A stretch of DNA of 64,000 bases from Pirellulales bacterium (GTDB lineage: Bacteria; Planctomycetota; Planctomycetia; Pirellulales; JACPPG01): contig DASXEJ010000303.1 in assembly GCA_036490175.1 (NCBI GenBank), forward strand, positions 2,511 to 66,510, given 5' to 3'. Shown here piece by piece: positions 3,083 to 4,708 of the stretch. The position numbers and the translations under genes are program-made. Below the pieces are notes generated by a model that saw only the letters and a program-made list of their open reading frames with translations, did not search any database and had not been told where the DNA came from. Positions within the stretch are counted from its first letter, which is position 1. Every line of letters starts with the position of its first letter.

Positions 3083-4708
3083 TTACATATCTAGGTGCTT
3101 CTGCCCGTCTGACTTTTTTGCTTTTGCCCGCGGCGCTTTCTTAAAGGTACGAAGGTCTCGCGTTGGCGGGAAGTCTGGCCGCGTTCCGTCCAAGAGTTCG
3201 CCCACGGTCATGATCTGGACGCGCGGATGCTTGGTCGGATCGCCATGCCCCCACGTAGACGTGTAGAAGCCGCTGCTCGCCGCTTCCTTGCGCATTGGCG
3301 CCGTTGGCTGCTGCATTGTTATCAGTACGCCGATCGCGGCCTTCTCGCGATCCAAGACGCCAACGAGGTCTCGGACATGTGCAGGACCGGTATGCCCGGC
3401 CTTAACCGAAAATATGATCTGTTTCGTATTACCGCTTTCTGCCTCATCGTGAAAGAAAAGGCGCCCGTCGATCCCTCGATCCGCGCCCTTCTTTTGCTCA
3501 ACAGGCCGCGCCCCGACAAGACCCAGCGCCCACCATTGAAACTGGTACGGATCATCGTGGGCCAACTGTTCTGCGTCTTCCACTGATACCGGTTCGCCAA
3601 TCACCTTATATTTGACCGTCTCACCATATGCAGTCTGGAGACGGTGCTTGATGAGTGAGATAGCGAGGTTAGTAATGTCGATTCCGATCCATTTGCGACC
3701 TAGTTTCTGCGCGGCAGCAATCGTGGTGCCGCATCCGCAAAATGGATCAAGAATTGTGTCGCCTTCCTTACTACTAGCATTGATGATTCGCTCTAAAAGC
3801 GCTTCAGGCTTTTGGGTTGGATAACCTAGTCGCTCTTGTGCCATAGCGTTAATAGGCGGGATATCGTCCCAGACGTTATTTATTGGCATACCTTGCCGTT
3901 CGTCCAGATATCTCCGCGCTTGTATTCTGCCATCTTTTTTCTTTGGGAATTCAAGCAATCCATCTGCGTCCATTTGCTTCATTTTTTCAAGTGATACCGC
4001 CCACCCGTTGGGGTGTGGTTTGTGTCCTTTGTAGTCGTAGGTCAAGTTCGGTCTTGGATGCGGACTCCTCATATCGGACAAGCGATAAATGCGCCCTGCG
4101 GCATCGACGTGACGATACTTCGATTCGATGTATTTTGGATCGTATGATTTGAACTGCCGGAAGAATGGAGCCACTGAAGATTTGACGTAGTAGAAGATGC
4201 AGTCTGACACGATCCCAAAATTACGGCGTGCGTCATTATGGGACGTTGTACGTTTCCAAATTATTTCGCTCCGAAAGTTCTCGGGCGAGAAAACAGCGTC
4301 GAGAAGAACCTTTAAGTAATGGCTCGCTGTCTGATCGCAATGCAGGTAGATCGCGCCGGTTGATTTTAAAGTGCGTCTCAGTTGCACTAGCCGCGGCGCC
4401 ATCATCGCAAGGTATGCCAACATGTCGTTGTTGCCGAGCGCTTGACGCATAGCCTGCATCGCCAACGACACTTGCTCTCCAGACTCGACAACCTCCTGAT
4501 ATGCGGCAGCGGCGCCCTGATCCCACTTCCATGTATCCTCGAACACTTGGATCTGCGCGGCCGAGCGACTGCCGTCTTGCTCGGCAAAAAGTACGTTGTA
4601 ATTCTGGTCGCTCTTGAATGGCGGATCGAGATAGACGAGATCGACAGACTCGTCATCAACGTAGCGGCGCAGTACGTCTAGATTGTCGCCGTAGTAAAGA
4701 TGATTCAC
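3083..4708 (-). CDS. Beta-class N6-adenine/N4-cytosine DNA methyltransferase fused to a C-terminal Mrr-like PD-(D/E)xK nuclease-fold domain
   Basis: Motif IV '[10 protein letters not shown]' near the N-terminus and motif I '[15 protein letters not shown]' later, which is the beta-class order. The C-terminal ~140 aa carry '[12 protein letters not shown]...[10 protein letters not shown]', resembling the Mrr_cat pattern (GxDGGIDG ... xQxK). Confidence 0.85.

Follow-up and report, generated by a model that had tools for sequence, protein, structure and literature searches.

A predicted DNA methyltransferase with a serine-variant Mrr-type domain rides on a complete IS1595-family insertion sequence of a Pirellulales bacterium

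A 64,000-nucleotide stretch of DNA from a Pirellulales bacterium (contig DASXEJ010000303.1; the whole stretch is called the window here) contains an open reading frame (ORF) at positions 3083–4708 of the minus strand, with a GTG start. The 541-aa product was predicted from Pfam, PADLOC, PDB and Foldseek matches to be a beta-class N6-adenine DNA methyltransferase (MTase) with a C-terminal Mrr-type domain. We found that this gene is a passenger of a complete IS1595-family insertion sequence (IS) of 4,267 bp, and that it belongs to a very large, mostly solitary family for which ISs are a minority context of about 5%. In the reading that we favour, and to which we give about an even chance, the protein is a solitary, portable N6-adenine MTase whose Ser-variant Mrr domain serves mainly as a DNA-binding or oligomerisation clamp. 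Both components are of kinds already known, one being an IS1595 transporter IS and the other a database-visible family annotated 'DNA methyltransferase'. The function of the SxK Mrr domain, the repeated capture of the gene by two IS families and a small ORF of the IS lineage are without documentation in the literature that was searched, and literature searches for an MTase fused to an Mrr or inactive restriction endonuclease (REase) domain, or for a Streptomyces phage MTase, found no characterised member.

The original prediction had assigned the enzyme to the beta class from the order of its motifs, and this was borne out by translation, by Pfam and by an alignment of 48 homologues. Motif IV, DPPF, at aa 28–31 (nt 4616–4627) precedes motif I, FCGCGTT, at aa 323–329 (nt 3722–3742), and both were invariant in the alignment. 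The Pfam model N6_N4_Mtase (PF01555) matched aa 22–353 with an E value of 4e-43, and the PADLOC Type II and Type III MTase models also matched the 541-aa protein. When PDB sequences were searched, CcrM was the best single match, with H. pylori Mod, M.BceJIV, RsrI and EcoP15I Mod also found. A full-length AlphaFold2 (AF2) model with a predicted local distance difference test score (pLDDT) of 81 was compared with known structures using Foldseek. Its two best matches were EcoP15I Mod, at E 2e-20, and H. pylori Mod, at 3e-17, after which came M.BceJIV, RsrI and CcrM; Mbo45V Mod also matched, at 6e-11. On the evidence of its sequence, the protein is a Type III Mod-like, circularly permuted (IV then I) beta-class MTase. 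The closest structures are adenine MTases, save PvuII and rotifer N4CMT, and the DPPF motif favours adenine as the methylated base.

Conservation was uneven along the protein. Mean pairwise identity in the family was 73% in the N-terminal catalytic part, 75% across motifs X and I–III and 65% in the C-terminal domain, and fell to 49% (minimum 27%) in aa 153–290 (3839–4252, minus strand), the most variable part and the predicted target-recognition region. Judged from its mosaic patterns across the family, this region behaves as a target-recognition domain under diversification. A basic tail predicted to be disordered, aa 511–541 (3086–3178, minus strand), had a mean identity of 36% overall, yet kept the motif TFKxAP(K/R)A, in which P526 was invariant and T521, K523 and A525 were at least 90% conserved, and which may be a docking or DNA-contact peptide. 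Type III Mods (EcoP15I Mod, 4ZCF; H. pylori Mod, 6K0W) share with this protein the beta class, its probable N6-adenine specificity, the permuted order of motifs IV and I and a variable recognition domain set within the chain, and they are its best matches both in full-length structure and in N-terminal sequence. The window MTase differs from them in having an extra C-terminal domain of PD-(D/E)xK fold, which a Type III Mod lacks.

That extra domain, preceded by a linker, occupies aa 366–510 (3179–3613, minus strand). The Mrr-like fold proposed for it originally was upheld by two Pfam matches above their gathering thresholds, by hhalign and by Foldseek. The best-scoring Pfam model in the region was NA-iREase1 (PF22722; aa 404–507), which scored 36.8 bits (cut-off 27; E 4e-9). 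Mrr_cat also matched, over aa 405–478, with 30.2 bits (cut-off 21; E 5e-7). An AF2 model of the isolated domain (pLDDT 83, secondary structure H-H-E-E-H-E-H-E) carries the predicted helix-helix-strand-strand-helix-strand core of the REase fold. Foldseek comparison of this model with the PDB returned MspJI first, followed by the REase-like N-domain of RPB5, EcoT38I, BamHI, EcoO109I, PaqCI and Can2, all as weak matches (best E 3e-3, template modelling scores 0.3–0.47). A profile of the domain gave chance matches only against PDB sequences. Against 1.84 billion representative sequences it gave 4,839 matches; each of the best 150 was either a fragment or a complete copy of this very family, and no other architecture appeared among them. 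By its profile matches and residue pattern, the domain is of the Mrr-type PD-(D/E)xK fold.

We found that the putative active site departs from that of Mrr where Mrr has Gln. The motif GADRGIDG lies at aa 408–415 (nt 3464–3487) and IIFSVKAGH at aa 431–439, with SVK at nt 3401–3409. The two motifs are separated by 15 residues and D414 stands 20 residues from S434, which makes the earlier figure of about 20 aa acceptable. When hhalign was used to align the domain with E. coli Mrr, GADRGIDG fell on GDGGIDG and FSVKA on VQAKR, and S434 therefore sits at Mrr's Gln position. The substitution of Ser for Gln, which had been noticed in the one sequence, was invariant in the 48 aligned homologues, as were K407, G408, D410, G412, I413, D414, G415, V435 and G438; K436 was at least 90% conserved. 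The full catalytic signature D...(D/E/Q)xK is thus absent, since D414 and K436 are present and the middle residue is S434 in 48 of 48 sequences. D447 or E455 was considered as a relocated acid, as in Cfr10I, and set aside, the Mrr alignment showing that this helix is generic to the family. The missing Gln or Glu and the better match to the 'inactive REase' model argue against catalysis, as far as residues and profiles can speak to it.

Domains of the Mrr and MspJI type, for which the PD-QxK site of MspJI is documented (PMC12707154), resemble the window domain in their alpha-beta-beta-beta-alpha-beta fold and, for E. coli Mrr, in GxDxGIDG and xxK motifs that align residue for residue. The window domain differs from them in its invariant Ser in place of Gln and in being fused to an MTase, not to a reader of modified DNA. 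NA-iREase1, the NACHT-associated inactive REase, is described as a non-catalytic REase fold; the window protein differs in lacking a NACHT or STAND NTPase and in keeping the two Asp residues and the Lys. A 396-aa beta-class MTase at L092 4208–5395, 33% identical to the window MTase and carried as cargo by the same IS lineage, ends in the same Mrr domain, but there the motif is the canonical GDRGIDG...IQVK (QxK). Because this relative has QxK, the Ser may be a derived state in the 541-aa family.

The proposal that the MTase is IS-borne was confirmed by inverted repeats and an 8-bp target duplication, and the borders of the element were newly located. Inverted-repeat searching showed that the pairing of 1426–1476 with 5644–5694 was the longest in the first 7 kb. 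The terminal inverted repeats are 24 nt long and match at 23 of 24 positions; the left one, GGCAACAATATACTTGACTCAGTG, lies at 1427–1450 of the plus strand and the right one, GGTAACAATATACTTGACTCAGTG in its minus-strand reading, at 5670–5693. Their core, GG(C/T)AACAATATACTTGACTCAGTG, has exactly two copies in the window, against none expected by chance. The direct repeat CTAAGTTG (8 bp) abuts both ends, at 1419–1426 and 5694–5701. Given the inverted repeats and the flanking duplication, the element is therefore 1427–5693, and repeat analysis together with domain assignment identified it as a complete IS1595-family insertion sequence. A target duplication of 8 bp is what is expected for IS1595 (PMC8101967). 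The insertion point coincides with the stop codon of the upstream gene, which is of the Amidohydro_2 family (ORF 46–1422). Since the left duplicated CTAAGTTG holds the TAA stop (1420–1422), the amidohydrolase gene was left intact by the insertion. Two further metagenome samples have this element inserted at the identical position. The window holds a single copy of it, and no empty insertion site was recovered.

From the right end, the element consists of the right inverted repeat, the transposase gene, the MTase gene, a 49-aa ORF, a convergent gene pair resembling PDC-M63 and the left inverted repeat. The transposase (4716–5645, minus strand, 309 aa) has a Zn ribbon and a DDE domain, and matched PF12760 (E 2.5e-12), PF12762 (E 6e-41) and NF033547 (192 bits, cut-off 75). 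The MTase gene starts 7 nt past the transposase stop on the same strand, its own stop is followed after 26 nt by the 49-aa ORF, and the PDC-M63-like pair lies tail to tail with that ORF. The G+C content of the MTase region (0.47–0.51) is below that of the flanks (0.58–0.62), consistent with a foreign origin. In passages of two sources that cite Siguier et al. 2009, transporter ISs with passenger genes are an established category and MTase passengers are reported for other IS families (PMC11891212, PMC8101967). The window element is a transporter IS of the IS1595 family, made up of a transposase and passenger genes. It is like the transporter ISs of IS1595 and other families in its Zn-ribbon and DDE IS1595 transposase, GG-ended repeats, 8-bp duplication and passengers, and differs from them in its own cargo set of the MTase–inactive-REase fusion, the 49-aa ORF and the PDC-M63-like pair.

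Promoter-like sequences were found at both ends as consensus matches. A TTGACT hexamer lies within each terminal repeat, at 1439–1444 (plus strand) and 5680–5675 (minus strand). The right one would be the −35 element of a promoter-like site at 5680–5652 (minus strand) that faces the transposase gene. On the left an inward promoter-like site, TTGACC-17-TATTAT, begins just past the repeat at 1451–1479 (plus strand). The IS ends may thus be start points for inward transcription of the cargo pair and of a transposase–MTase operon.

We next considered how the MTase family is distributed. The homologue search gave at least 8,000 database matches, and the best 120 homologues were full-length, 62–75% identical and of the same Pfam architecture as the window MTase. 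Among species-representative genomes, 468 stretches held a relative; the locus analyses covered the best 80 of these 468 (57–67% identity), which span more than 10 phyla. Their hosts include Planctomycetota, Acidobacteriota, Actinomycetota, Gemmatimonadota, NC10, Nitrospiraceae, Armatimonadota, Chloroflexota (Anaerolineae and Dehalococcoidales), Bacillota, Spirochaetota and others. Full-length homologues that keep SVK occurred in 28 phage records at 47–50% identity, from temperate Streptomyces phages and some Mycobacterium phages. Full-length SVK homologues were also plasmid-borne in Mesorhizobium, Rhizobium, Bradyrhizobium and Microbacterium, without a nuclease partner. Cultured carriers include Mesorhizobium japonicum MAFF303099 (pMLa, WP_044552088) and Microbacterium amylolyticum (WP_165137960). 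Three further plasmid matches, H9, H10 and H16, were first taken for shorter fusions and then rejected, since each is a standard Type III Mod gene with a DEAD/DEAH helicase behind it. In Streptomyces phage Yasdnil, gp48 (L175 2474–4111, 50% identity) adjoins a serine integrase, and a close relative of the window MTase (P0008) lies within a phage-like region.

The absence of an obvious separate restriction gene had been part of the original prediction, together with the suggestion that homologues be checked for adjoining restriction genes, and the wider survey agreed with it. No res gene (superfamily 2 helicase with PD-(D/E)xK nuclease) was found in the IS or within 12 kb. Clustering of all flanking ORFs at the 80 loci yielded no conserved neighbour, the biggest cluster being integrases at 7 loci. 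A Pfam census of the 131 immediate neighbours at these loci showed that no family exceeded 3 occurrences and that neither a nuclease nor a helicase recurred, and PADLOC at the homologue loci detected scattered single defence genes only. Whereas a Type III Mod has a res helicase-nuclease partner, none adjoins the MTase in the window or its relatives at the 80 homologue loci; the one ResIII helicase seen beside a homologue is at L081. Many family copies are flanked by housekeeping genes only. In two Thermoguttaceae and one Pirellulales metagenome-assembled genome (L031, L033 and L060) the MTase homologue lies in the same position between rho and ribH-nusB, which suggests stable vertical retention of an orphan MTase in a housekeeping context.

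Genes of other kinds were seen directly downstream of three of the closest homologues, which are 72–75% identical to the window MTase. At L174 a TIR_2 gene (2378–3271) follows on the same strand after 22 nt; at L082 a SIR2_2 gene (7632–8660) overlaps the MTase stop by 4 nt within an AbiJ/SIR2/SLFN defence island; and at L081 a ResIII/DEAD helicase gene (3082–5568) follows on the same strand after 60 nt.

Capture of the MTase by ISs appears to have happened more than once. Five other transposed elements carry a family MTase, three of IS1595 type and two of IS1 type, all with 8-bp duplications. Four came from the 80 genome loci, where the MTase lies inside a complete IS: L023 (IS1595, NC10, target duplication TTAACTTG), L074 (IS1595, Planctomycetota, CTTTTTTG), L026 (IS1, Acidobacteriota, CTTCTGAC) and L015 (IS1, Acidobacteriota, GGGGGCCG). 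The fifth, the IS1595-type L112, came from a metagenome scan anchored on the transposase, which covered 80 transposase relatives (L088–L167, 58–69% identity) and in which L112 alone carries an orthologous MTase. All five keep the order of transposase then MTase. In the two IS1-family elements (L026 4712–8647 and L015 2483–6899; inverted repeat GGTAGTGGGTCAGTTTG) the MTase is directly downstream of the transposase and its stop lies at or inside the right inverted repeat.

Outside the recognition region, each IS-borne MTase is nearer to a homologue outside these six elements (76–83%) than to the other IS-borne copies (70–74%). When sequences were joined by neighbour-joining, the smallest clade to contain all four IS1595-borne MTases took in 112 of 128 sequences. 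The tree and the identity pattern therefore indicate that capture was repeated or that exchange is frequent, and a single ancestral capture by an IS was rejected, as the IS-borne MTases are not monophyletic in the tree. L112 and L015, which belong to different IS families, are 82% identical in the recognition region and 71% identical in the rest of the MTase. The second cargo differs in every MTase-bearing element: it is the PDC-M63-like pair in the window, a 250-aa protein with PIN in L074, a 273-aa protein with PIN in L112, DUF433/HTH (helix-turn-helix) with PIN_10 in L015, P63C with a 91-aa protein in L026, and a 303-aa with a 135-aa protein in L023. The window neighbours are therefore not obligate MTase partners. 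An addiction module formed with the neighbouring genes, one of the roles first suggested, is accordingly disfavoured, because the PDC-M63-like pair is absent at the other loci examined and the second cargo changes from one IS copy to the next.

Under the favoured reading of a solitary portable MTase, the gene would probably be co-transcribed with the transposase gene from a promoter in the right inverted repeat. The enzyme would probably be dimeric, by analogy with EcoP15I Mod2 and CcrM. Its aa 153–290 would recognise a short stretch of DNA, from which the target adenine would be flipped out into the pocket at DPPF, with S-adenosylmethionine bound at FCGCGTT. The C-domain, not an efficient nuclease, would hold the enzyme on DNA, as the unrelated C-terminal domain of CcrM does. 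The MTase would then methylate any genome entered by the element, phage or plasmid, shielding the entered DNA from restriction systems of overlapping specificity and imprinting the host epigenetically. It would be a self-sufficient cargo with no dependence on the PDC-M63-like pair. CcrM (6PBD) is like the window MTase in being a solitary beta-class MTase, of N6-adenine specificity as the window MTase probably is, with a C-terminal accessory domain, which in CcrM binds DNA non-specifically, in the dimer (PMC6787082). The two differ in that the CcrM domain is SAND-like and the window domain REase-like, and in that CcrM is a conserved cell-cycle regulator with the fixed target GANTC, whereas the window MTase family is horizontally mobile with diversifying recognition regions.

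Several observations weigh against this reading. The motifs KKGADxGIDG...SVKxG are wholly or nearly invariant, more so than a decaying nuclease site would be kept, and the fact that both Asp residues and the Lys are so strictly kept argues, at the level of sequence, that the site retains some role. SxK motifs are also found in active enzymes, of the Cfr10I/NgoMIV type. The recognition region diversifies in the manner of restriction-modification (R-M) enzymes. The closest relatives (70–75% identity) are often in defence islands or mobile elements, and the genes directly following them include TIR, SIR2 or ResIII-helicase genes. Defence and toxin modules also dominate the cargo of the IS1595 lineage.

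These points bear most on the main rival reading, in which the protein is a single-chain R-M enzyme, another of the roles first suggested. One polypeptide would then methylate its site in host DNA and, with an active Ser-variant nuclease, cut unmethylated incoming DNA at or near the enzyme's own site. We consider this possible, though on the unlikely side. Such an enzyme would be like Type IIG/IIC but with a beta-class MTase and a C-terminal nuclease, and, when carried by an IS, would amount to a portable defence or selfish addiction module. The union of an MTase and a PD-(D/E)xK-fold domain in one chain speaks for it, and so do the conserved D410, D414 and K436, the canonical QxK retained by the L092 relative in the same IS lineage and the fact that the top Foldseek match, MspJI, is an active Mrr-like nuclease. 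The mosaic, diversifying recognition region and the partnerless solitary gene have the look of a self-contained R-M enzyme, and close relatives are found in defence islands and phage-like regions while the IS lineage is rich in defence cargo. Set against this, the position of the metal or water ligand (Q/E) is Ser in all aligned members, the best Pfam match is an 'inactive REase' family, and no structural match of the C-domain reached E ≤ 0.001. Many copies lie among housekeeping genes, some of them kept vertically, and temperate-phage copies stand beside an integrase, where a solitary protective MTase is the usual reading. To our knowledge, the known single-chain R-M enzymes are gamma-class MTases with N-terminal nucleases. 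Type IIG/IIL enzymes such as MmeI are like the window protein in combining a nuclease fold, an MTase and a recognition region in one chain encoded by a solitary gene. In those enzymes the nuclease is N-terminal, its catalytic motif is intact and the MTase is of the gamma class, whereas the window protein has a beta-class MTase and a C-terminal nuclease-like domain with a non-canonical motif.

A broader claim, that the fusion of an MTase with an SxK Mrr domain is an unrecognised class of self-contained R-M enzymes or immune sensors, is one that we would make only tentatively and regard as rather doubtful. If it were true, a fully portable gene would have been captured repeatedly by IS1595-type and IS1-type transposons, temperate phages, plasmids and defence islands, and the new class would sometimes be wired to TIR, SIR2, PIN or helicase effectors.

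The sensor version of this idea appears unlikely. It holds that the MTase marks self while a nuclease-dead Mrr domain senses unmarked or foreign DNA and activates a neighbouring effector, which in the window would be the PDC-M63-like pair and at other loci PIN, TIR, SIR2 or a helicase, in a modular form of abortive infection. Effector-type genes do lie directly beside the homologues at L174 (TIR_2), L082 (SIR2_2) and L081 (ResIII helicase), PIN or PIN_10 genes occur in three IS copies, and inactive REase domains have been proposed as nucleic-acid sensors in conflict systems (10.1101/2025.10.09.681413). However, no effector family recurs among the 131 immediate neighbours, and many copies have housekeeping flanks only. 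The IS lineage carries toxin and defence cargo with or without the MTase, so that the co-occurrence may be coincidental, and PDC-M63AB had no detectable defence effect when tested in E. coli NILS69 (10.1101/2024.12.20.629700).

Least probable of all, and very improbable in our view, is regulation of the transposon by its own MTase, which would methylate the IS ends or the transposase promoter and so tune transposition, as Dam controls IS10 and IS50 but with an element-encoded enzyme: the 7-nt spacing on one strand, the gene order kept in L023, L074, L112, L026 and L015, independent capture by two IS families and promoter-like −35 hexamers in or next to both inverted repeats would fit it, but about 1 in 80 elements of the IS lineage has the MTase, about 95% of MTase homologues are off ISs, and the IS-borne recognition regions differ (30–43% identity) while the IS ends are conserved, so a shared target in the ends is unlikely.

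If the enzyme is the portable MTase that we favour, epigenetic marks can spread by a 4.3-kb IS that, in a single transposition, delivers a whole DNA methyltransferase to a new genome. Two IS families, phages and plasmids have each acquired members of the same enzyme family independently. Establishing whether the Ser-variant Mrr domain cuts, senses or binds would give a function to thousands of genes annotated 'DNA methyltransferase' and would also clarify how PD-(D/E)xK nuclease folds are re-used. The phage-borne family members are experimentally tractable for finding the methylated motif.

The two other passenger genes of the element are co-oriented on the plus strand with a 4-nt overlap, and both PDC-M63 models were matched, the B model weakly. 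The first (1467–1982) encodes a 171-aa DUF6932 protein with a minimal nucleotidyltransferase-like GS...DxD motif (PF22014, E 7e-21; PADLOC PDC-M63A, E 2e-24). The second (1979–2911) encodes a 310-aa protein with a weak full-length match to PADLOC PDC-M63B (E 4e-7) and no Pfam, NCBIfam or PDB relative. PDB sequence searches with both proteins found nothing. PDC systems are guilt-by-embedding predictions (10.1101/2024.01.29.577857). A fixed partnership between the MTase and the PDC-M63-like pair was examined and rejected, as no homologue of either gene was found at the 80 MTase-anchored loci, the 80 transposase-anchored loci or L081–L085, the five loci around the closest MTase homologues.

Most of the 80 transposase-anchored loci had the same type of inverted repeat, with the lineage repeat GGYAAYAATATACYTGACTC. 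This repeat type, together with 8-bp duplications, is shared by L023, L074, L112 and over 30 further elements. All 38 complete elements of the lineage (1.8–5.6 kb) carried cargo, and most had perfect 8-bp duplications. The cargo included TIR, PIN, MazF/PemK, HEPN, RelA_SpoT, a NucC-like DUF6602 protein, a BglII endonuclease with an MTase, SLFN_AlbA_2, AbiEi, DUF3800 and proteasome-like proteins. The lineage is thus a compact natural shuttle of toxin and defence genes, and may serve the discovery of defence genes.

The 49-aa ORF (2908–3057, minus strand) encodes a basic protein with a motif of about 35 aa, TPFERFxxLAKKLVSVPKSEID..., that recurs in the IS lineage. Gene calling in L169 likewise reported this ORF. 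The protein had no Pfam match. An iterated hidden Markov model search found the motif (consensus PTPFERFEALAKKLVAVPKSELDRKEKKYKKQKRRK) at 56 of the 80 transposase-anchored IS loci, and examples are L093 6930–7073, L144 6896–7054, L112 6991–7176 and L023 9200–9337. Judged from this recurrence, the small ORF looks like an undescribed accessory protein of the IS1595 lineage. The motif is found mostly in an ORF of 40–70 aa right after the transposase gene, with the ORF pointing either way; in L111, L135 and L114 it forms a fusion with a cargo protein.

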